DNA of 17,062 nt. It comes from a virus. Made by a program: the position numbers and the translations under genes. The notes under the pieces were generated by a model. The model did not search any database. It was not told the origin of the DNA and saw nothing but the letters and a program-made list of their open reading frames with translations. Location of the stretch: the UHGV virus genome UHGV-0205375, one strand, 5' to 3'. Every line of letters begins with the position of its first letter. The first letter of the stretch is position 1. Positions 1-9,450 of the stretch are shown in pieces.

Positions 1-83
1 GTGACGCGGACATTATCCGGCGTAATGCCATTACGCATCCTGGCTTTGTGCCGGTGATCCCTCTGAAGGTGCCAGTGCAATGA
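1..83 (+). CDS. 3' end (27 codons) of an upstream tail-module gene, partial
   Basis: Open frame from the window edge to TGA at 81-83, which overlaps the next ATG (80-82) in an ATGA coupling arrangement. Too short to assign a family; by Mu-like gene order it could be the DNA-circulation protein. Confidence 0.3.
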   Translation, partial: DADIIRRNAITHPGFVPVIPLKVPVQ

Positions 84-1159
84 ACGACAATGTCACGCTA
101 CGGGTAAATGGCCGGGAGTGGAATGGCTGGACATCGGTGCGCATCGGTGCCGGTATTGAACGGCTGGCGCGGGATTTCAGTGTGGAGATCACCCGCCAGT
201 GGCCGGGAGATGAGGGTATTACCACGCTTCAGCCGCGCATTAAAAACGGTTCAAAAGTGGAAGTGCTGATTGGTGATGAGCTGGTGATTACCGGCTGGGT
301 GGAGGCGACTCCCGTTCGTTACGATGCCCGTTCGGTCAGCACCGGTATTGCCGGACGTAGTCTGACGGCTGACCTGATTGACTGTGCAGCCGAACCGACA
401 CAGTTTAACGGACGCTCGCTGGTGCAGATTGCGCAGGCGCTTGCTGCGCCTTTCGGCATTGAGGTGGTGAACAACGGTGCGCCGTCGGGTGTTATTCCTG
501 ATGTCCAGCCTGATCACGGTGAAACGGTGATTGAGGTAATCAACAAAATACTCGGTCAGCAGCAGGCACTGGCTTACGACGACCCGCACGGCAGGCTGGT
601 GATTGGCGGTATTGGCTCAACGCGGGCACATACTGCGCTGGTACTCGGGGAAAACATCCTTTCCTGCGATACGGAGAAGAGTATCCGGGAGCGGTTTTCT
701 GTTTACCAGGTGGCGGGGCAGCGTGCCGGAAACGACGATGATTTCGGTGAGGCCACCACCACCGCGCTGCGGGCCCGCACAGAGGACGCATTTATTGCCC
801 GTTACCGTCCGATGTATATCAGGCAGACAGGGCAGGCTACGGGGGCAGGCTGTATTGCCCGTGCGGACTTTGAAGCCCGACAACGGGCGGCGCGGACGGA
901 TGAAACCACCTATGTGGTGCAGGGCTGGCGACAGGGTAACGGTACGCTGTGGCAGCCCAACCAGCGGGTGATTGTCTTCGATCCGGTCTGTGGTTTCGAC
1001 AATACCGAACTGCTTGTCTCGGAAGTCACGTTTACTCAGGACCAGAACGGCACCCTGACGGAAATCCGTGTCGGCCCACCTGATGCTTATCTGCCTGAAC
1101 CCGAAGCCCCCGGCGCGCGGAAAAAGAAAAAAGCCAGAGTACAGGAGGACCCGTTCTGA
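80..1159 (+). CDS. Baseplate hub / tail protein, Mu gp44 (P)-like, phage GPD family
   Basis: 359-aa ORF with AGGAGG-type coupling to the next gene. First gene of a collinear Mu-like baseplate block (hub, V, gp46, J, gp48, fibre). Assignment rests on synteny and recalled similarity. Confidence 0.75.
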   Translation: MNDNVTLRVNGREWNGWTSVRIGAGIERLARDFSVEITRQWPGDEGITTLQPRIKNGSKVEVLIGDELVITGWVEATPVRYDARSVSTGIAGRSLTADLIDCAAEPTQFNGRSLVQIAQALAAPFGIEVVNNGAPSGVIPDVQPDHGETVIEVINKILGQQQALAYDDPHGRLVIGGIGSTRAHTALVLGENILSCDTEKSIRERFSVYQVAGQRAGNDDDFGEATTTALRARTEDAFIARYRPMYIRQTGQATGAGCIARADFEARQRAARTDETTYVVQGWRQGNGTLWQPNQRVIVFDPVCGFDNTELLVSEVTFTQDQNGTLTEIRVGPPDAYLPEPEAPGARKKKKARVQEDPF

Positions 1160-1707
1160 TGAAGGCGATTGAAGCCATGCAGCGACAACTCCTCGGCCTG
1201 ATTGGGCGGGCAGTGGTGAAAAGCATCAGTGCCACCACGAAATGTCAGACCGTGGATGTGTCCCTGATTGCCGGTGAACCCAAAGCCGGGATTGAACATC
1301 TTGAACCCTACGGTTTTACCGCAAGGGCAAACAGCGGTGCGGAAGCGGTGGTGTTGTTTCCGGATGGCGACCGTTCTCATGCGGTGGTTGTTACGGTGTC
1401 GGACCGGCGCTACCGCCTGAAAGGGCTGCAGACGGGTGAGGTGGCTGTCTATGACGATCAGGGGCAGTCCGTGACGCTGACCCGGGAGGGGATCGTGGTG
1501 GACGGTGCAGGTAAAACGATCACGTTTCGCAATGCGCCCAGAGCACGTTTTGAAATGGACCTGGAAGTGACCGGACAGGTGAAAGACCTGTGCGACTCCG
1601 GCGGTACCACCATGTCAGCGATGCGGCTTGCCTATAACGGGCATCGTCACAGAGAGAACGGTCAGGGCAGTAACACCGACAAACCGGATAAAGCGATGGA
1701 GGCATGA
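1159..1707 (+). CDS. Baseplate assembly protein V-like (Mu gp45-like spike)
   Basis: 182-aa ORF; its ATG at 1159 overlaps the upstream TGA (1157-1159), with AGGAGG at 1144-1149. Position and size fit a baseplate V/spike protein. Confidence 0.75.
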   Translation: MKAIEAMQRQLLGLIGRAVVKSISATTKCQTVDVSLIAGEPKAGIEHLEPYGFTARANSGAEAVVLFPDGDRSHAVVVTVSDRRYRLKGLQTGEVAVYDDQGQSVTLTREGIVVDGAGKTITFRNAPRARFEMDLEVTGQVKDLCDSGGTTMSAMRLAYNGHRHRENGQGSNTDKPDKAMEA

Positions 1708-2132
1708 TGGAACTGTGGCTGACGGTGAACGGTAAACGCACCTGCGCCAGTGCACCGCTGGATCCGCTGACCCGCGCCGTGGTGATTTCCCTGTTTACCT
1801 GGCGGCGGGCGGAGCCTGATGACAACGCCGACGTCCCGATGGGATGGTGGGGGGATACCTGGCCTGCGGTACAGAATGACCGTTACGGCTCCCGACTGTG
1901 GCTGCTTCAGCGCAGCAAACTGACCAATCAGCTGGTGCAGACGGTAAGGGGATATATCCGCGAATGCCTGCAATGGATGATTGATGACGGCGTGGTGTCC
2001 CGTATTGATCTGGATATCCGCCGCACCGGGATTAATGAGCTGGGTAACAGTATCACCCTCTGGCGTCGTGACGGACCGGTAATGATTTCTTTTGATGATC
2101 TGTGGAGTGCGATAACGCATGGCGGACAGTGA
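1704..2132 (+). CDS. GP46-family baseplate protein (Mu gp46 / P2 W-like)
   Basis: 142-aa ORF; ATGA overlap with the upstream stop at 1704-1707. Position is between the V and J genes. Confidence 0.7.
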   Translation: MMELWLTVNGKRTCASAPLDPLTRAVVISLFTWRRAEPDDNADVPMGWWGDTWPAVQNDRYGSRLWLLQRSKLTNQLVQTVRGYIRECLQWMIDDGVVSRIDLDIRRTGINELGNSITLWRRDGPVMISFDDLWSAITHGGQ

Positions 2133-3177
2133 ATTTCAGCGCCCGACGCTGGCAGAAAATATCAGTATGCTCCGTAACGATTTATTCGCCAGGCTGGACG
2201 TCAGCGACACGCTCCGGCGCATGGATGAAGACGTGCGGGCAAAGGTGTATGCGGCGGCGCTGCATACGGTTTACGGTTACATCGATTATCTGGCAATGAA
2301 CATGCTGCCTGACCTGTGCGATGAGTCCTGGCTGGCGCGACATGCTGCGATGAAACAGTGTCCGCGCAAGGGGGCCACGGCTGCCAGCGGGTATATGCGC
2401 TGGGAAGGTGTCAGCGATGGCCTGAAGGTGACCGCCGGGAGTGTTATTCAGCGCGATGACCTGGTTCAGTACACGGCAACTGCCGATGCAACCAGCTCCG
2501 GTGGTGTCCTGCGCGTGCCGATCGCCTGCTCAAATGCAGGCGCGGTCGGTAACGCTGACGACGGTACGGCATTAATCCTGGTCACGCCGGTGAATGGTCT
2601 GCCGTCTTCCGGTGTGGCTGACACCCTGACAGGCGGATTTGATACTGAAGAGCTGGAAACGTGGCGCGCCCGCGTCATTGAGCGGTATTACTGGACGCCG
2701 CAGGGCGGGGCTGACGGGGACTATGTCGTCTGGGCTAAAGAAGTGCCCGGCATTACCCGCGCATGGACATACCGTCACTGGATGGGAACGGGAACTGTCG
2801 GTGTGATGATTGCCAGCAGTGACCTGATTAATCCCATTCCGGAAGAATCAACGGAAACGGCGGCAAGACAACATATCGAACCACTGGCCCCGGTGGCAGG
2901 CTCTGATTTGTATGTGTTCAGGCCGGTGGCACATACGGTGGATTTTCATATCCGCGTGACGCCGGACACACCGGAAATACGGGCTGCCATCACCGCGGAG
3001 TTGCGTTCGTTCCTGCTGCGTGATGGTTATCCGCAGGGAGAACTGAAGGTATCGCGTATCAGTGAGGCGATTTCCGGTGCGAACGGGGAATACAGCCATC
3101 AGTTGCTTGCACCGGCAGACAATATCTCCATTGCGAAAAACGAACTGGCGGTACTGGGGACGATTTCATGGACGTGA
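2119..3177 (+). CDS. Baseplate J-like protein (Mu gp47-like)
   Basis: 352-aa ORF overlapping its neighbours by a few codons. Size and position are typical of baseplate J. Confidence 0.8.
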
Positions 3178-3752
3178 CAAACGATGATTACATCCGTCTG
3201 TTGTCGGCACTGTTGCCCCCCGGTCCGGCGTGGTCAGCCGGCGATCCGGCGATTGCCGGTGCGGCACCGTCATTAACCCGCGTTCATCAGCGTGCGGATG
3301 CCCTGATGCGGGAGCTTGATCCGCGCACCACCACCGAGCTGATAAATCGCTGGGAGCGTCTGTGTGGCCTGCCGGATGAATGTATTCCCGCAGGGACACA
3401 GACCCTTCGCCAGCGTCAGCAACGGCTGGATGCGAAGGTTAACCTGACGGGTGGCATCAACGAGGATTTTTATCTTGCACAGCTTGCTGCCCTGGGCAGA
3501 CCAGACGCCACCATCACGCGATACGACAAAAGCACGTTCACCTGCTCATCGGCCTGTACTGACGCGGTGAATGCGCCGGAATGGCGGTATTACTGGCAGG
3601 TCAACATGCCAGCCGCCACCAACACCACCTGGATGACATGTGGCGATCCCTGTGATTCCGCGCTGCGCTTCTGGGGGGACACCGTTGTCGAGTGTGTTCT
3701 TAACAAACTCTGCCCGTCGCATACCTATGTGATTTTTAAATATCCGGAGTAA
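3168..3752 (+). CDS. Tail protein, DUF2313 family (Mu gp48 / YmfQ-like)
   Basis: 194-aa ORF immediately upstream of the tail fibre gene, overlapping the J gene stop. Confidence 0.7.
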
Positions 3753-3755
3753 TCC

Positions 3756-4421
3756 ATGCATCGTATAGACACGAAAACCGCGCAGAAGGATAAGTTCGGC
3801 GCGGGTAAGAACGGTTTTACCCGTGGTAACCCCCAGACCGGCACGCCTGCCACCGATCTGGATGATGACTACTTTGACATGTTGCAGGAGGAGCTTTGCA
3901 GCGTTGTGGAGGCATCCGGTGCCAGCCTGGAGAAGGGGCGGCATGACCAGCTGCTTACCGCGCTTCGTGCGCTGCTGTTAAGCCGCAAGAATCCGTTTGG
4001 TGATATCAAATCGGATGGCACGGTGAAAACGGCTCTCGAAAACCTTGGTTTGGGAGAAGCGGCAAAACTTGGCGCTGCTGTAGGGGTAACGGGTAATACC
4101 GGGAGAATATTGATCCCGGCTTTAATTGGTGGGGTTGAACAAAATATCATTTTCCAGTGGGTCTCTGGATTTCTTTCCGATTCGACTGGAGTAGCAACCG
4201 TGACATTACCTATGGCATTTCCTAACGCTCTGTTTCATGCCACTGCGATTGACTCAGGTGCTTCTGCTAGCTCGTGGAATGGATCGGCCGGCACAACGTG
4301 GGGCTTCGATATTGGTGGCTCTACCAGAACGACAGTCAAAGTTCGTGTTTTAAGAACAACTAATGGGACTTCATGGGCGGGTGCTTCAGCTGCCGGTTGT
4401 TTATTCGCAATAGGTTATTAA
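3756..4421 (+). CDS. Tail fibre protein; constant N-terminal part (Sc) fused to the currently expressed variable C-terminal part (Sv)
   Basis: 221-aa ORF with GGAG 7 nt upstream. N-terminus [40 protein letters not shown] is the conserved e14/Mu-type fibre N-terminus. The inversion crossover site lies inside this gene at 4033-4058. Confidence 0.8.
4033..4058. repeat. Left recombination site of the invertible segment (hix/gix-like, 26 bp, core TT at 4045-4046)
   Basis: CTCTCGAAAACC TT GGTTTGGGAGAA; its reverse complement TTCTCCCAAACC AA GGTTTTCGAGAG resembles the hix/gix sites as recalled. A 24-bp perfect inverted repeat (4045-4068) pairs with 5625-5648. Confidence 0.65.
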
Positions 4422-4422
4422 C

Positions 4423-4839
4423 ATGAAAACAAGATACTTTTATGACGCCGTTGATAACGGATTTTATATTGAACCTGAAAGCAGGTTTATTCCTGAATCA
4501 GCTATTGAAATCAGTGTTAACCTCTACAACCAATTTGCTGGTATTGCCTGGCCTGAAGGTAAAATGCTTGGTGCAGATAGCACTGGACTGCCCGCATGGG
4601 TCGATGCGCCGCCTCCAACGCATGAAGAGCAAATAGCGGCGGCAGAACAATATCGCCAGCAACGGCTACAGCAGATTGACGAAGTAACCGCCGACTGGCG
4701 GGTTGAATTAATGCTCGGCGATATAAGTGACGAGGATAAAGCGAAATTGTCTGAGTGGATGGCGCATAAAAAAGCGGTGAAAGCCGTCGATACGTCAACG
4801 GCCCCTAATGTCATCTGGCCTGAACAGCCGGAGGCGTAG
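4423..4839 (+). CDS. Tail fibre assembly protein (Tfa family)
   Basis: 138-aa ORF directly after the fibre gene. The motif LPAWVDAPPPTHEEQIAAAE is shared with the opposite-strand paralogue (LPAWADIPPPTHEELIEITE). Confidence 0.8.
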   Translation: MKTRYFYDAVDNGFYIEPESRFIPESAIEISVNLYNQFAGIAWPEGKMLGADSTGLPAWVDAPPPTHEEQIAAAEQYRQQRLQQIDEVTADWRVELMLGDISDEDKAKLSEWMAHKKAVKAVDTSTAPNVIWPEQPEA

Positions 4840-5254
4840 GCCATTCAATATCTGGCGCACCGGAAGTATCAACCAGTTCCAGTGCGTCCAGATAATCCAG
4901 CCACAAATTATATTGCGCCAGTTCGTCACCTTTCAGACGACCAATAGCGGCTTTACCGGGCCATTGTTTACTGTTCATGTATTCGTTGGCCTGGTTAATT
5001 AGTAACTGTCTTTCTGATTCAGTAATTTCAATAAGCTCTTCATGCGTGGGTGGAGGAATATCAGCCCACGCAGGCAGCGCATCATCTCCGGCAATACGGA
5101 CTTTTCCTTGTGGCGGTTCAGCCATAAACTCACTGACAATATTTTGATTCACTTCTTTCACATCTGATAAATCCCATCCCTCTGATTTATATTTATCAAT
5201 CATATCCACAGGGAAAAAAGCATTATGTCTGGCACTATAAACATATTTGTTCAT
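4811..5254 (-). CDS. Alternative tail fibre assembly protein (Tfa'), in the inverted orientation
   Basis: Start moved to the internal ATG at 5252-5254 (MNKYVYSARH...), preceded by an AGGGTG SD-like sequence; 147 aa. Carries the Tfa motif and overlaps the 3' end of tfa by 29 bp, as in e14 and Mu G segments. Confidence 0.75.
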   Translation of the reverse strand: MNKYVYSARHNAFFPVDMIDKYKSEGWDLSDVKEVNQNIVSEFMAEPPQGKVRIAGDDALPAWADIPPPTHEELIEITESERQLLINQANEYMNSKQWPGKAAIGRLKGDELAQYNLWLDYLDALELVDTSGAPDIEWPTPPAVQAR

Positions 5255-5274
5255 ATAAATCACCCTGAATAAAA

Positions 5275-5643
5275 TTACTCGCCAACAGCCCACCAACAGT
5301 AATTCATGGTAACAGTTGGACTTGTCGAGGTTGTTCTAAAGGCAGAATAAAACCCTGTTAACCCTGTCTCTTCAGTTGTCATCATAAAACCACGACCACT
5401 CCCGGCAGTTGAACCACCATCACCAGAATGTGAAAGCAAGGCAATATCAGCTTTTTTAGGGAAAGGTATATTAAATTCTACCCGTAGTGTCTGACTCGCA
5501 AGCGTAGGAGACACACGCCCACGACCATATTGCAGGATTTTCCCGTTGGGTAATTTCATCCATCCATCACCACTGGCAAAAGAGGCCATGTCCGGTATCT
5601 GATTTTCCCCTGTCCCCACATCCCGTTTTGCCGCTTCTCCCAA
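5275..5643 (-). CDS. Alternative tail fibre variable C-terminal cassette (Sv'), promoterless until inversion
   Basis: 122-aa open frame whose 5' end (GEAAK...) begins inside the right crossover site and mirrors the ...LGLGEAAK junction of the expressed fibre gene. Inversion would fuse it to the constant part of 3756-4421. Confidence 0.65.
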   Translation of the reverse strand: MGEAAKRDVGTGENQIPDMASFASGDGWMKLPNGKILQYGRGRVSPTLASQTLRVEFNIPFPKKADIALLSHSGDGGSTAGSGRGFMMTTEETGLTGFYSAFRTTSTSPTVTMNYCWWAVGE

Positions 5644-5660
5644 ACCAACCTTTCAAATAT
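5635..5660. repeat. Right recombination site of the invertible segment (core AA at 5647-5648)
   Basis: TTCTCCCAAACC AA CCTTTCAAATAT. The inner half-site plus core is identical to the reverse complement of the left site; it lies 60 bp upstream of the invertase start. Confidence 0.65.
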
Positions 5661-5719
5661 TTTTCTGAATCAGGTGATATTTCGCCTCTTCTCCTGTTTT
5701 TACAACAGGAGAAGCACTC

Positions 5720-6283
5720 ATGATTTACGGGTATGTTCGTGTATCAACAAATCATCAGGATACAGAGTTGCAACGTCTTGCACTTGAGTCAGCTGGCTGT
5801 GAGCGAATTTATGAAGAATATGCCAGTGGCAGAACAGCTAATCGCCCTGTGTTAAAGGAATTAATTACGGTGATGAAAAGTGGAGATGAGTTGATTGTCT
5901 GGAAGTTAGATCGGATAGGGAGAAATGTGCTGCATGCGCTATTGATGTTTCAAAATCTGCACGAAAAAGGTGTTAATTTTCGGAGTATTACAGATGGCGT
6001 AGACCTGAAAACAGCAAGTGGTCGCTATAATTTCCGTAATATTCTTTCTGCTGCGCAGTATGAATCTGATTTGAATAGCGAGCGAACTTTAGCTGGTTTG
6101 GCTATTGCCAGATCCAAAGGCCGGATTGGTGGGCGTAGACCGAAGTTTAGCGACGAGCAGTGGCAACAGATGGGAGCGCTCATAGCGGCAGGGAAATCAC
6201 GGCGTTATGTTGCACGTATCTATAACGTTGGGCTATCAACCCTATATAAACGATTTCCTGTTACTGGCATTCAAACGAAATAA
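5720..6283 (+). CDS. pin: Serine DNA invertase, Pin/Gin/Hin family
   Basis: 187 aa with AGGAG 8 nt upstream. N-terminal YGYVRVSTNHQ (catalytic Ser), WKLDRIGRN, GRIGGRRPKF and a C-terminal HTH (VGLSTLYKRF) follow the Gin/Pin pattern, and the gene abuts the invertible segment. Confidence 0.9.
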   Translation: MIYGYVRVSTNHQDTELQRLALESAGCERIYEEYASGRTANRPVLKELITVMKSGDELIVWKLDRIGRNVLHALLMFQNLHEKGVNFRSITDGVDLKTASGRYNFRNILSAAQYESDLNSERTLAGLAIARSKGRIGGRRPKFSDEQWQQMGALIAAGKSRRYVARIYNVGLSTLYKRFPVTGIQTK

Positions 6284-6587
6284 TTTAAAAGCAATTTAAA
6301 GAGTTATTTGTCTAATGTTGGAAGCCGCAGCCACGTCGTATGCAAGAACGTGCTGCGGCTGGCTGGCGAACTTTCGATAGTGCGAGTATTGAATGATTTC
6401 CAACTGTTATCGATTTTGCGTATTTTTTGCATGAGAGGATTTTTACCTCCTCCCGCCGATCCTCCATGGCTTTACGCCTGTGTCTCTGGTCTGCTCTGTG
6501 CCAGAAGCGGACATAGCAGGTGCCAGATGCATTTGTTATTCTTCATTGAATTGAGCAGTATCCTTAACAGGAACTCTGAATACATAA

Positions 6588-7226
6588 ATGAAGATGAAAA
6601 ACATGTCTGAAGTGTTGACCCAAGAAAAGCTTATTTTTGTTGCCCAGAGACTAAAGGCCCTCGCGCAGTCAGGCCTGACCTATTCAAAAGACGTCTTTGA
6701 CAAGGAACGCTATGAAGCCTTGCGTGAAATTGCCGCTGGACTGCTGAGTTCGCAGTTTGATATTAGCCGCAATGATTTGTTTCATGTATCGGAAACGGGT
6801 TACGCGACGCCCAAAACAGATGTGCGTGCGTTTATCCTGCGTAATAATCGTATTCTGATGGTGAAAGAGGCTGCAGATGGATTATGGAGTCTTCCTGGCG
6901 GATGGGCAGATGTTGGAGATACACCTTCTGAAGCTGTGCGTCGAGAGGTCGAAGAAGAAACCGGATTAAAAGTCAGAGTGACTAAACTATTGGGAGTTTG
7001 GGATCGTAATCTTCACGGCCATCCGCCTTTACCCTGGCATGTTTACAAGCTGATTTTTCTCTGTGAAGAAGTAGGTGGCAGCCTGTCAATCAGCCATGAG
7101 TCACTCGATGCTGATTTTTTTGATGTCAACGACCTGCCTGAATTGTCGCTTTCAAGAATTGTGCCTGAGCAGATTGCTGTCAGCCTGAGAGTAGCGAAAG
7201 GTGATGAAAAAACATGGTTTGATTAA
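6588..7226 (+). CDS. NUDIX hydrolase with an N-terminal helical domain
   Basis: 212-aa ORF with a Nudix box GGWADVGDTPSEAVRREVEEETGL (G-x5-E-x7-REVxEExGL). The start is ambiguous among ATGs at 6588, 6594 and 6603; substrate unknown. Confidence 0.75.
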   Translation: MKMKNMSEVLTQEKLIFVAQRLKALAQSGLTYSKDVFDKERYEALREIAAGLLSSQFDISRNDLFHVSETGYATPKTDVRAFILRNNRILMVKEAADGLWSLPGGWADVGDTPSEAVRREVEEETGLKVRVTKLLGVWDRNLHGHPPLPWHVYKLIFLCEEVGGSLSISHESLDADFFDVNDLPELSLSRIVPEQIAVSLRVAKGDEKTWFD

Positions 7227-7255
7227 CTTTCTTCTGCAACCATTAAGGAATGGCA

Positions 7256-7894
7256 ATGATATTCAACGCTAAGGGTTTTTTATTCGATATGGACGGTACG
7301 CTGGTTGATTCAACAGCCGTAGTGGAAAGCGTCTGGAGAGATTTTTGTGCAGAATACGGTCTTGATTCTCAGGCTGTGATTGCTTACGCACACGGGCGGC
7401 AAACGATTGATACACTAACGCATTTTATTGGTGCAGGTGAGAAAACCAATAAAATCGCGGCCTCACTCGAAGAGGTTGAAATCAACACGACAGAAGGCGT
7501 TACTGAAGTAAAAGGGGCCGCTGCACTCTTATCAAAACTGCCACCGGATAGCTGGGCACTTGTCACTTCTGCAGGCAGAATGCTTGCCGAAAACAGGATG
7601 AAAGCGGCTAATCTCCCCTTACCCAGAGTAATGGTGTGTGCAGAAGATGTAATGACGGGAAAACCAAGTCCCGAGGGTTACATCAAAGCAGCTTTGGCTT
7701 TGGGCCTTGAGCCTGGTGAATGCGTGGTATTTGAGGATGCATCTGCGGGTATAAAAGCAGGGCTGGCAAGTGGAGCTTCGGTAATAGCTGTTCAGCCTGA
7801 CGCTCTGGGAGCATCTGAAGCCCATGCCGTCAGCGAACTGTCTGACATTATGGTCAAGATTTCCGGAGAACGTTTCAATATCATCTGTGGTTAA
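7256..7894 (+). CDS. HAD-IA family phosphatase (beta-phosphoglucomutase-like sugar-phosphatase fold)
   Basis: HAD motif I FDMDGTLVDS at the N-terminus and an acidic motif (VVFEDASAG) near the C-terminus. Start placed at the second ATG (7256) because AAGGA at 7244-7248 is then 7 nt upstream; the ORF track starts at 7250. It lies 23-29 bp after the NUDIX gene, so probably co-transcribed. Confidence 0.8.
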   Translation: MIFNAKGFLFDMDGTLVDSTAVVESVWRDFCAEYGLDSQAVIAYAHGRQTIDTLTHFIGAGEKTNKIAASLEEVEINTTEGVTEVKGAAALLSKLPPDSWALVTSAGRMLAENRMKAANLPLPRVMVCAEDVMTGKPSPEGYIKAALALGLEPGECVVFEDASAGIKAGLASGASVIAVQPDALGASEAHAVSELSDIMVKISGERFNIICG

Positions 7895-8226
7895 TCACGT
7901 TACACAATACGCATCAATGGACGCTGAGTAGTTCGCGAGTTTTAAACTTCCAACGTCCGCTTTTCGCTCATAACAGACATAAACTTCAGTTATGGCATAA
8001 AGGTATGCATGCTGGGTGGGGAAAGTATGAAGGAAAAGAAGACTGCTGCGCCGTTTGTCGTCACGTTTATCTTCATTGGCTATGCAAGTCGTAATACAAG
8101 GTGGGACAAAACTGAGACACATAAGGCCTCGCAATGGCTTGCAAGGCTTTACATGTTTTGATGTGGTGGGACGTGTGAGCGCAGTGTTGATGGGGTAATG
8201 CTTTGAATTAGAAGCGGATTCTTATA

Positions 8227-8273
8227 ATTCGTAATGCGAAGGTCGTAGGTTCGACTCCTATTATCGGCACCAT
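8227..8273 (+). tRNA. Partial tRNA-Thr(CGU) gene: 3' 47 nt only (anticodon loop through CCA); attachment-site core, not a functional tRNA
   Basis: ATTCGTAATGCGAAGGTCGTAGGTTCGACTCCTATTATCGGCACCA contains the anticodon CGT, T-arm GGTTCGACTCC and acceptor 3' end with CCA, matching the 3' part of enterobacterial thrW as recalled. The upstream 80 bp has no D-arm or 5' acceptor half. It sits 13 bp from the 3' end of the integrase gene. Confidence 0.7.
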
Positions 8274-8286
8274 TTAAATCAATAAG

Positions 8287-9450
8287 TTACACATCATTAG
8301 TACCTTCCTTATTTTTTGACTGGGACAAATTTGGGACCGATGGGTTCAGGATCGAGTCTATTTGCCGTGCGTGTTCGGTAAGGTGATTAGGTGCAAGGTG
8401 AGCATATCGACGAACCATTTCGATAGACTCCCAGCCTCCCATTTCCTGTAACACTGACAACGGGACTCCGGCTTGAACCAGCCAACTTGCCCAGGTGTGT
8501 CTCAAGTCGTGAAATCTGAAATCATCAATACCAGCCCGTCTCAGCGCCGCTTTCCAGGCTGTGTTTGCGTCATACCGCATCTTCCTGACTGTTGGCGCTT
8601 TCGTTCCGTCTGGTTTGGTACAGCTTTCCTTGTACACAAATACCCAACGGTGATGATTCCCGATTTGTTTTTTCAATACGCGACATGCAGTATCATTCAG
8701 CGCAACGCCAATTGCGCGGTTTGATTTACTCTCTTCCGGGTTTATCCATGCCACCCGGCGCTGCATATCTATTTGTTGCCATTCAAGGTTGATGATGTTC
8801 GAGCGTCTTAGGCCTGTTGCCAGTGCAAATTCAACAACAGACTTTAATGGCTCCGGACATTCATCAATCAGCCTTTGTGCTTCATGGGGCTCCAGCCAGC
8901 GGATCCGTTTATTCTTTGGTTGGGGCACTTTAATAATTGGTGCCTTATCCAGCATTTTCCATTCACGCTCTGCGGCTCTTAGTAGGGCCTTTATAAATGA
9001 AAGATGCGTAGCCTTCGTTGCAACGGACGCTGGTTTTGGCGTGTATTCTGGAACAGGTTTCCCTTTTTTTCTGCATGCTTCTGCCCTGAGTTTCCAGTTT
9101 TCCTCATGACGCCGGTTCGTCATTTTCTGCATTGCTGAATAAATTTTTGATTCAGTAATGTCTCTTAGTTGCATTCCTGCGAAATGTTGAAGCCAGAATC
9201 CGATCCGGCTTTTGTCATCGTCCAGTGATTTTTTATGTGCTTTCTCTTCAAGCCACCTGACACACGCTTCCTCGAACGTTATATCAGGTATTTCACCAAG
9301 TTTGCTGACCCGCCATGCTTCAGCCTTTAGCTTGTCATGGAGTTCTGTCGCCTGCCTTTTGTCCTTTGTTCCAAGAGACTGTTTAAATCTTTTACCGTTC
9401 GGCAATGTGAAACTGGCGTACCATATTTCACCTCTGCGGAAGAGTGACAT
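8287..9450 (-). CDS. int: Tyrosine integrase, lambdoid/P22-like
   Basis: 387 aa with C-terminal catalytic region [16 protein letters not shown]...MVRRYAHL (H-x-x-R and Tyr). The 3' end abuts the tRNA-Thr fragment; P22-type integrases are known to use thrW. Confidence 0.9.

Follow-up and report, generated by a model that had tools for sequence, protein, structure and literature searches.

A probable Pin/Gin-type inversion switch for the tail-fibre tip of an SfV/SfIV-like temperate phage

Introduction

Some phages carry a DNA segment that an enzyme encoded next to it can invert, which exchanges the tip of the tail fibre and with it the range of bacteria to which the phage can attach. The G segment of phage Mu, the C segment of phage P1 and the P segment of the e14 element have been textbook cases of such switches since the 1980s, and the designations Sv and Sv' for the two alternative fibre C-termini are taken from the Mu nomenclature. 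The e14 P segment inverts in culture (PMC4272514; PMC12529663), and is flipped by PinE as well as in trans by PinQ/PinR (PMC12529663); its left crossover site and inner repeat are the same as those of the locus described here.

Here we describe a related segment in a 17,062-nucleotide stretch of viral DNA, UHGV-0205375 (hereafter the window). A preliminary description had assigned the locus to a known type of invertible tail-fibre system; this assignment stands, with the qualification that the e14 Pin/P segment, and not Mu G, is the nearest known system. We estimate a probability of about 85% that the locus is a Pin/Gin-type site-specific inversion switch for the receptor-binding fibre tip, carried by an SfV/SfIV-like temperate phage with a Mu-type baseplate. 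As a switch it is conceptually nothing new, and it is ordinary save for the unstudied clade to which its invertase belongs, but it provides a clean and fully readable example in which all of the parts are intact and the same cassettes are seen flipped in nature.

Results and Discussion

The phage that carries the segment

Judged by its sequence, the element that carries the segment belongs with the SfV/SfIV-like temperate phages and has a baseplate of the Mu type. The baseplate module spans 80-3752 and includes a Baseplate_J gene identified by profile match (2119-3177) and, directly upstream of the fibre gene, a plus-strand gene of the YmfQ / Mu gp48 baseplate wedge family (3168..3752; Pfam Phage_Mu_Gp48, E=6.9e-27). 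The baseplate wedge region is 97-99% identical at the DNA level to phages SfI, SfII, SfIV, SfV and SKA5, and to the prophage of E. coli C10. Beyond the invertase gene the window has NUDIX-HAD, followed by an SfIV-type int. The idea that this is a prophage truncated after the invertase was rejected because the window stays colinear with the SfIV/SfV int-xis-early region. No tRNA fragment marking an attachment site was found in the window.

Both the baseplate module and the early region, which is SfIV-like, appear intact, and the fibre is therefore most simply a part of the virion. This bears on the proposal that in a lysogen the switch acts as a host anti-phage device rather than as the setter of virion host range. 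Such a role is reported for the e14 P segment, whose inverted fusion protein blocks adsorption of phage T2 (PMC12529663) and whose sites and constant fibre part are common to the window. However, the variable tips are unlike those of e14, and together with the apparently intact baseplate module and early region this makes an anti-phage role quite improbable here.

Crossover sites and inverted repeats

The left 26-bp crossover site (4033-4058) reads CTCTCGAAAACC-TT-GGTTTGGGAGAA, with its core dinucleotide at 4045-4046, and the right site (5635-5660) reads TTCTCCCAAACC-AA-CCTTTCAAATAT, with its core at 5647-5648. The two are in inverted orientation with matching cores (TT/AA), and a 24-bp perfect inverted repeat (left arm 4045-4068, partner arm 5625-5648), located by direct comparison, covers their inner halves and cores and stops exactly at the 2-bp core. 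A repeat finder reports somewhat longer arms (4040-4068 and 5625-5653) of 29 nt that are 93% complementary. About 5e-7 perfect 24-nt pairs are expected by chance in 17 kb, a figure that is our own arithmetic (N^2/2 x 4^-24). The inner half-site plus core, TTCTCCCAAACCAA, is present with two or fewer mismatches at just these two places within the window, compared with 0.18 expected, and a site search of the window revealed no extra crossover sites of the kind seen in a multi-inversion system such as p15B Min. The preliminary description had reported perfect 24-bp repeats, hix/gix-like sites of 26 bp around a 2-bp core, and divergence of the right-hand site in its outer half, and all three observations hold.

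Alignment with known sites, also proposed in that description, shows that no position distinguishes the left site from the left-hand site of the K-12 e14 P segment (positions 3779-3804 of the compared e14 sequence) or from the sites of SKA5, C10 and C11. By our own count, 18 of its 26 positions agree with Mu gix. The right site has its inner half and core in common with e14, but its outer half is CCTTTCAAATAT rather than the CGTTTATGAAAA of e14, and is a poor fit to the family half-site consensus. The same right site is present without change in phage SKA5, and the motif AAACC-AA-CCTTT is also situated upstream of related invertase genes in most loci from other genera, with AATTG or AAATG replacing AAACC in two of them.

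The fibre gene, its alternative tips and their chaperones

The plus-strand tail-fibre gene (3756-4421) encodes a 221-aa protein of the Gp53-like_C type, composed of a constant part and Sv. The constant 5' part (3756..4046, plus strand; residues 1-97) lies outside the segment and shares approximately 97% identity with the 'short tail fiber' gene of SfV/SfIV, the likeness stopping at about 4067, where the repeat has its inner end. Sv, the variable C-terminus (4047..4421, plus strand), matches Gp53-like_C (E=1.6e-8) as far as the end of the profile, and is fused in frame to the constant part in the present orientation, as had been described earlier. It is followed by the gene for its tail-fibre assembly chaperone, Tfa (4423..4839, plus strand; Pfam Caudo_TAP, E=1.9e-31). 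The minus strand carries the silent alternative C-terminus Sv' (5275..5646; Gp53-like_C, E=5.7e-10) and its chaperone Tfa' (4811..5254; Pfam Caudo_TAP, E=3.4e-30), a 147-aa gene annotated alike in C10 and C11. The two tfa genes converge with a 29-nt overlap and their products are 32% identical, and similarity between Sv' and Sv is undetectable past the first seven residues. The left arm of the 24-bp repeat codes for a junction peptide, GLGEAAK, that is common to both tips.

Inversion in silico between the cores yields an uninterrupted alternative fibre of 220 aa, which together with the reading frames and Pfam matches agrees with the earlier account of two intact alternative C-termini and two Tfa chaperones. 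The exact 221-aa protein (WP_249530955.1) is found in public genomes, and the eight places shown, of 12 contigs, all have an e14-type right end. The exact flipped 220-aa fibre was absent from a collection of 15 billion proteins, and a near-identical variant is encoded by C11.

The fibre gene is thus split, with the constant 97-residue N-terminal part outside the segment and the two tips of about 124 residues arranged head to head within 1.6 kb, each followed by its own chaperone gene. By analogy with the family mechanism, invertase dimers would bind both 26-bp sites, introduce staggered cuts at the TT/AA cores, rotate one pair of half-sites by 180 degrees and religate the ends, so that the alternative tip with its chaperone would come to lie in frame downstream of the late promoter and the constant 5' part. 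Expression would be confined to whichever cassette has the plus orientation, and a lysate from a mixed population would thus carry two adsorption specificities. Catalysis by the window's own enzyme, its rate and the receptor of each tip are matters that we infer.

Both orientations occur in nature

Two E. coli prophages, in C10 (CP010132) and C11 (CP010133), occupy the same chromosomal place beside yfhH, and have flanks that are 99.97% identical and a 1614-bp middle that is inverted at 99.9% identity, with the breakpoints falling inside the repeats. C10 has the 221-aa fibre protein as here, and C11 is in the flipped state, with the fused Sv' annotated. The adjacent recombinase is truncated in both, so the inversion that separates them must have been made earlier or in trans. 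In addition, an invertase identical to that of the window (187/187 residues) adjoins a related segment that has one orientation in SKA5 and E. coli 2824 and the other in GPEC1222.

The exact combination of cassette pair and invertase allele was present in no genome of the collections searched, and among 5,426 complete E. coli genomes there was no place covering at least 80% of 3700-6300; inversion of the window's own element is therefore not directly observed. Nonetheless, because both orientations are known for the cassette pair, and also for the identical invertase with a related segment, the switch is very probably active, which strengthens the earlier suggestion that it is functional. It is correspondingly very unlikely that the segment is a frozen relic that has lost inversion. 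The exact combination is known from a single orientation, the outer half of the right site is weak, and relatives decay readily (SfIV keeps only the reverse tfa by an IS, phi80 a fragment, and C10 a truncated recombinase), but the window retains every part intact, with two open frames and perfect 24-bp repeats, and these parts are found inverted elsewhere.

The truncated recombinases of C10 and C11 raise the further question of whether such segments depend for inversion chiefly on other Pin-family recombinases of the host, acting in trans, with the adjacent gene playing a minor part. C10 and C11 differ by an inversion in spite of that truncation, the left site and inner repeat are shared with the e14 segment that both PinE and PinQ/PinR invert (PMC12529663), and E. 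coli genomes hold a median of two and a maximum of nine matching places. We nevertheless consider this unlikely for the window, where the adjacent invertase is intact, has a conserved recognition helix, and is found as the exact protein on at least 1000 public contigs; moreover, the prophages of a host are not dependable for a free phage.

The invertase gene and its leader

The adjacent gene (5720..6283, plus strand) lies outside the segment and encodes a full-length serine DNA invertase of 187 aa with matches to Resolvase (E=3.3e-36) and HTH_7 (E=7.3e-12). Catalytic residues Ser9, Arg7, Asp64, Arg65 and Arg68 align with those of Gin and PinE, to which the protein is about 50-55% identical, and the recognition helix GLSTLYKRFP is conserved. 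Its best solved relative is Gin (3UJ3, 4M6F; E=1.2e-56 across residues 1-181). The gene is thus intact, as first described.

A conserved leader (5674..5716, plus strand) precedes the gene and consists of a 5-bp hairpin and then an 11-12-bp hairpin whose 3' arm holds the invertase Shine-Dalgarno sequence, AGGAG. The predicted fold has an energy of -26.1 kcal/mol (z = -5.5), the leader is kept in five other genera with one compensatory pair (C-G to U-A), and in phage phi80 it carries the annotation 'IR3', ahead of pinL. By sequestering the ribosome-binding site, this conserved hairpin would be expected to keep expression of the invertase low. In a promoter and terminator scan of 3600-6700 no clear sigma-70 promoter for the invertase was found on the plus strand before the gene, and the counts of both signals in this region are at chance level.

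An invertase clade with altered Fis-dependence residues

The invertase belongs to a large, widespread and common clade of uncharacterised enterobacterial phage invertases, which includes PinL of phi80 and is marked by the signature GRYNFRNILSAAQYES in helix E; the literature library searched for phi80 pinL contained nothing relevant. Asn104, Arg106, Ile108, Tyr114 and Ser116 are invariant in all 119 of 119 clusters in the clade; the corresponding residues of Gin and PinE are F, H, M, M and R. Asn104 occupies the position of Hin Phe105, such that the Phe105/Met109 lock is replaced by N104 and I108. The equivalent Hin mutant, F105N, inverts faster than wild type in vivo and does not need Fis (PMC4513852). 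Hin residues K/R48, K/R51, Q151, R154 and L155 are reported to be uniquely conserved in Fis-dependent invertases (PMC3798978), and the corresponding residues here are E47, T50, Q150, A153 and L154. Positions 50, 150, 153 and 154 differ among clade members, so that the residues by which Hin makes contact with Fis and the enhancer are not conserved in this clade. The window invertase thus does not have the combined Fis/enhancer-dependent residue set and Phe105/Met109 lock, although Hin K47 is retained as Lys46. These features raise the possibility, which we advance tentatively, that the switch is real but that enzymes of this clade are not classically Fis/enhancer-dependent, and act without Fis or under some other control, such as a leader hairpin that limits translation.

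In a search for a Fis enhancer, as the preliminary description had proposed, an enhancer is not clearly present. Two 15-mers of the form G-N13-C at +22 and +71, conserved in gin, pinE and C10 pin, are degraded here to GTATCAACAAATCAT and CAGCTGGCTGTGAGC, each short of one terminal G or C, a loss to be read in light of the degeneracy of Fis sites. Other pairs 48 bp apart score poorly when scored by G-N13-C and AT-centre, to which the same caution applies. The positions that we take to be the gin/pinE enhancer were assigned provisionally, by pattern, and their spacing comes out at 49, compared with 48 as published. The retained Lys46 also tempers the case for Fis-free inversion. Synonymous sites in 13 clade genes show only a weak extra constraint in codons 1-20, and this could mark an embedded element. 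Hin F105N also provokes SOS, and a wild enzyme with the same substitution must therefore compensate elsewhere. That the clade has naturally lost its dependence on Fis and the enhancer, with activity perhaps limited by the leader hairpin through sequestration of the ribosome-binding site, seems to us a little more doubtful again. If independence of Fis does prove natural to the clade, it would parallel the hyperactive Hin and Gin mutants with which the control of serine recombinases has been studied, and would offer a compact recombinase for engineering.

Comparison with known systems

The locus has these properties of a Din (Hin/Gin/Cin/Pin) system: a small serine recombinase with the nucleophilic Ser9 (S9 in Gin, S10 in Hin) and an HTH, two inverted, imperfectly palindromic 26-bp sites with identical cores, alternative fibre 3' exons and chaperones inside the segment with the constant 5' part and the promoter outside, and both orientations represented, for the cassette pair and for the identical invertase with a related segment. 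It falls outside the narrower e14 Pin system, which has a PinE-type invertase and the right site TTCTCCCAAACC-AA-CGTTTATGAAAA. The e14 P segment of K-12 has the same gene order after the same YmfQ gene (ymfQ-stfP-tfaP-tfaE-stfE-pinE), is 96.8% identical in DNA over 2390-4069, including the constant fibre part, and has tfa genes that converge with the same 29-nt overlap and an invertase outside on the right. It differs in the variable tips and most of the tfa genes, and in the spacer from the end of the 26-bp site to the invertase, which is 59 nt with the conserved hairpin in the window and 54 nt without such a hairpin in e14. Furthermore, e14 is a defective remnant, whereas the window element looks like a complete SfIV-type phage region.

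Mu G/Gin, and likewise P1 C/Cin, resemble the locus in having a split fibre gene (Sc plus Sv or Sv'), paired chaperones (U/U'), 26-bp sites and an invertase gene that lies beyond the segment, with gp44-48 of a Mu-type baseplate upstream. However, the Mu G segment is 3 kb with a fibre of about 500 aa, compared with 1.6 kb and 221 aa here, the cores are GA/TC in Mu G and AA/TT in the window, and the enhancer and Fis-contact features of Gin are not conserved.

The closest relatives divide according to which parts of the switch they have in common with the window. SKA5 (OR670062) and the 2824 and GPEC1222 prophages have the identical invertase protein, crossover sites and leader, and agree with the window at 97-99% in the baseplate and the constant part of the fibre, but contain another cassette pair; SKA5 then continues to dinI-int, in contrast to the NUDIX-HAD and SfIV-type int of the window. 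The C10 and C11 prophages have the same cassette pair (99.4%), but an e14-type right site and a truncated PinE-type recombinase instead. The same cassettes have thus come to be paired with two types of invertase through exchanges located precisely at the crossover sites, which illustrates the way in which E. coli temperate phages trade receptor-binding modules.

Organization of the invertible tail fibre module

The module follows a Mu-type baseplate module containing a Baseplate_J gene (2119-3177) and a Mu gp48/YmfQ gene (3168-3752), and begins with a fibre gene (3756-4421) encoding a 221-aa protein with a C-terminal Gp53-like_C domain. Downstream are Tfa (4423-4839), Tfa' (4811-5254) on the opposite strand to Tfa, a second Gp53-like_C tip, Sv' (5275-5646), on the opposite strand to the fibre gene, and a 187-aa invertase (5720-6283) with Resolvase and HTH_7 domains. 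These ORFs and domains bear out the preliminary description of two alternative fibre C-termini (Sv and Sv') and two Tfa chaperones, with Sv fused to the constant part in the present orientation, adjoining an intact serine invertase; the invertase is full length and retains the catalytic residues Ser9, Arg7, Asp64, Arg65 and Arg68. In silico reverse complementation of 4047-5646 generates an open 220-aa fibre whose first 104 residues are unchanged. Sv and Sv' have in common only seven repeat-encoded residues, GLGEAAK, and Tfa and Tfa' are 32% identical.

Two further features of the cassettes were noted. A 43-nt, 77% inverted repeat (4588-4630 and 5035-5077) arises from a PAW-D-PPPTHEE motif common to both tfa genes, and the 3' end of Tfa' (region 4808-4999, including the 29-nt overlap with Tfa at 4811-4839) is 94-96% conserved with the e14 P segment of E. 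coli K-12 and phage SKA5, while the remaining cassette sequence differs.

A repeat finder identifies inverted arms at 4040-4068 and 5625-5653 (29 nt, 93% complementary), and alignment of one arm to the reverse complement of the other confirms the reported 24-nt perfect repeat, at 4045-4068 and 5625-5648; we calculate that chance alone would give about 5e-7 such repeat pairs in 17 kb. The arms overlap 26-bp crossover sites with 2-bp cores, CTCTCGAAAACC-TT-GGTTTGGGAGAA on the left (4033-4058) and TTCTCCCAAACC-AA-CCTTTCAAATAT on the right (5635-5660). The perfect repeat runs outwards as far as the central dinucleotide and no further, as predicted for exchange at this point. A search of the window for the inner half-site plus core with up to two mismatches found no third copy (0.18 expected), indicating a two-site rather than a multi-inversion system.

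Evidence for inversion

E. coli C10 and C11 (CP010132 and CP010133) carry the same prophage adjoining yfhH, with flanks 99.97% identical over 3 kb per side; between the sites, 1614 bp lie in opposite orientations in the two strains, at 99.9% identity. The window's orientation and an identical 221-aa fibre are found in C10; in C11 the segment is flipped and a 220-aa fusion is annotated. The recombinase adjoining the segment is truncated to 89 codons in both prophage regions (L001 5016-5282 in C10, L002 2673-2939 in C11), and their inversion thus occurred either before the truncation or in trans. For e14, inversion of the segment takes place in ordinary cultures (PMC4272514) and can be driven by PinE and, in trans, by PinQ/PinR (PMC12529663).

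The window invertase is identical (187/187) to those of phage SKA5 and the E. coli 2824 and GPEC1222 prophages. All three have a left site identical to that of the window; the right site is also identical in SKA5, differs at one outer-half base in 2824, and was not matched in GPEC1222. The orientation of some 1.3 kb of the GPEC1222 segment is opposite to that in SKA5 and 2824. Inversion of the cassette pair between C10 and C11, together with an identical invertase beside both orientations of a related segment, supports the earlier proposal that the switch is probably functional. None of the genomes searched has exactly this pairing of cassettes and invertase allele; 80% coverage of 3700-6300 is not reached in any complete E. 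coli genome, and all eight of the listed places encoding the exact 221-aa fibre have an e14-type right end. For the window itself we therefore infer inversion rather than observe it.

Module exchange and genomic context

Similarity between the window and C10 ends at 5653, and that with SKA5 is interrupted from 4067 to 5634, showing that cassette pair and invertase have recombined exactly at the crossover sites; the window combines cassettes of the C10 type with an invertase of the SKA5 type. Other matches break off about 100-190 nt into the invertase gene (about 5820-5904), forming a second class of breakpoints; in phi458, for example, 99.6% identity is confined to 5632-5904. These boundaries suggest that modules are often exchanged both at the crossover sites and within the 5' part of the invertase gene.

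The window is colinear with SfIV and SfV, temperate Shigella/E. coli phages, with about 97% identity in the baseplate and constant fibre part, and 98.5% identity to SfIV from 8102 onwards (integrase, excisionase, early genes, cI and replication). The tail genes are followed without a break by the invertible module, the cargo, an integrase (8287-9450, minus strand), an excisionase, early genes and cI, as in the vegetative map of SfIV/SfV, and the presumed attP region (~8100-8290) is uninterrupted. In SfIV one tfa in forward and one in reverse orientation, an IS and gtr O-antigen genes occupy the stretch from fibre gene to integrase, the IS and gtr genes taking the place of Sv', the invertase and a NUDIX-HAD pair in the window; with its reverse-strand tfa, a remnant of the switch, this SfIV stretch resembles a decayed form of the intact module. 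The NUDIX-HAD pair (6588-7894, between invertase and integrase) consists of genes for a HAD phosphatase and for a NUDIX hydrolase that carries a Nudix_N domain. It recurs at different positions, with 99% identity, in unrelated lambdoid E. coli prophages, and behaves as mobile cargo (a moron).

The invertase and its clade

The exact invertase protein is present in at least 1000 contigs, and its clade includes at least 119 clusters at ≥77% identity in Escherichia, Salmonella, Citrobacter, Klebsiella, Enterobacter and Serratia, with relatives at 65-82% identity in Kluyvera, Trabulsiella, Morganella, Erwinia and others. We take phi80 pinL to belong to the clade from its 83% DNA identity to the window gene and its same leader, rather than from protein alignment. 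In its recognition helix the window invertase closely resembles Pin and Hin. Overall identity to PinE and Gin is only ~50-55%.

In Hin, Phe105 and Met109 lock the inactive dimer, and F105N gives faster inversion in vivo, dispenses with Fis and induces SOS (PMC4513852). With a one-residue offset, confirmed on the Hin DNA-binding-domain structure, the window has Asn104, Arg106 and Ile108 for Phe105, His107 and Met109, all invariant in the clade (119/119). Hin contacts the Fis-bound enhancer through K47, K/R48 and K/R51 of helix B and Q151, R154 and L155 of the DNA-binding domain, residues uniquely conserved in Fis-dependent invertases (PMC3798978). The window counterparts are Lys46 (112 K and 7 R in the clade), Glu47 (mostly R/K, 95/119; Glu in 11), Thr50 (mostly A/T/G, seldom basic), Gln150 (64 E, 47 Q), Ala153 (38 R, 25 A, 23 E) and Leu154 (68 L, 31 R, 17 M). 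The Fis-contact patch varies freely, unlike residues 99-128, which are identical in 13/13 genes compared across genera.

The genes gin, pinE and C10 pin share conserved G-N13-C 15-mers at +22 and +71; from their pattern, those of gin and pinE are taken to be the classical enhancer. In the window 15-mers at these positions, GTATCAACAAATCAT and CAGCTGGCTGTGAGC, one terminal G or C is missing from each; Fis sites being degenerate, this need not mean that the enhancer is lost. Different regulation of the clade from the classical enzymes is compatible with these features.

Third-codon-position diversity among 13 clade genes is ~0.85 bits in codons 1-20 (5720-5780) and ~1.0-1.7 elsewhere, hinting at an extra constraint on DNA or RNA.

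Two adjacent leader hairpins, at 5674-5687 and 5688-5716, separate the right site from the start of the invertase gene; the second has an 11-12-bp perfect stem that buries the AGGAG ribosome-binding site (Shine-Dalgarno sequence) in its 3' arm (-26.1 kcal/mol, z = -5.5 for the leader fold). The structure is kept in Kluyvera, Trabulsiella, Pseudocitrobacter, Shimwellia and Apirhabdus, with one compensatory change (C-G to U-A), and is annotated as 'IR3' before phi80 pinL. The predicted hairpin presumably keeps invertase translation low.

Comparison with known systems

The switch is a new instance of a well-known system type, as previously described, and the uncharacterised invertase clade is the sole lead beyond the ordinary. 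The left site matches Mu gix at 18/26 positions, in agreement with its description as hix/gix-like, with an AA/TT core in place of GA/TC. The nearest relative is the e14 Pin/P system, whose left site is identical and whose right site has the same inner half and core; the outer half, noted earlier as diverged, is indeed CCTTTCAAATAT here and CGTTTATGAAAA in e14. A 2025 study gives the inner repeat TTGGTTTGGGAGAAGG as the site of e14 inversion (PMC12529663); the first 15 bases of this repeat, TTGGTTTGGGAGAAG, match the window. Unlike the window, neither e14 (pinE) nor Mu (gin) has the leader hairpin structure.
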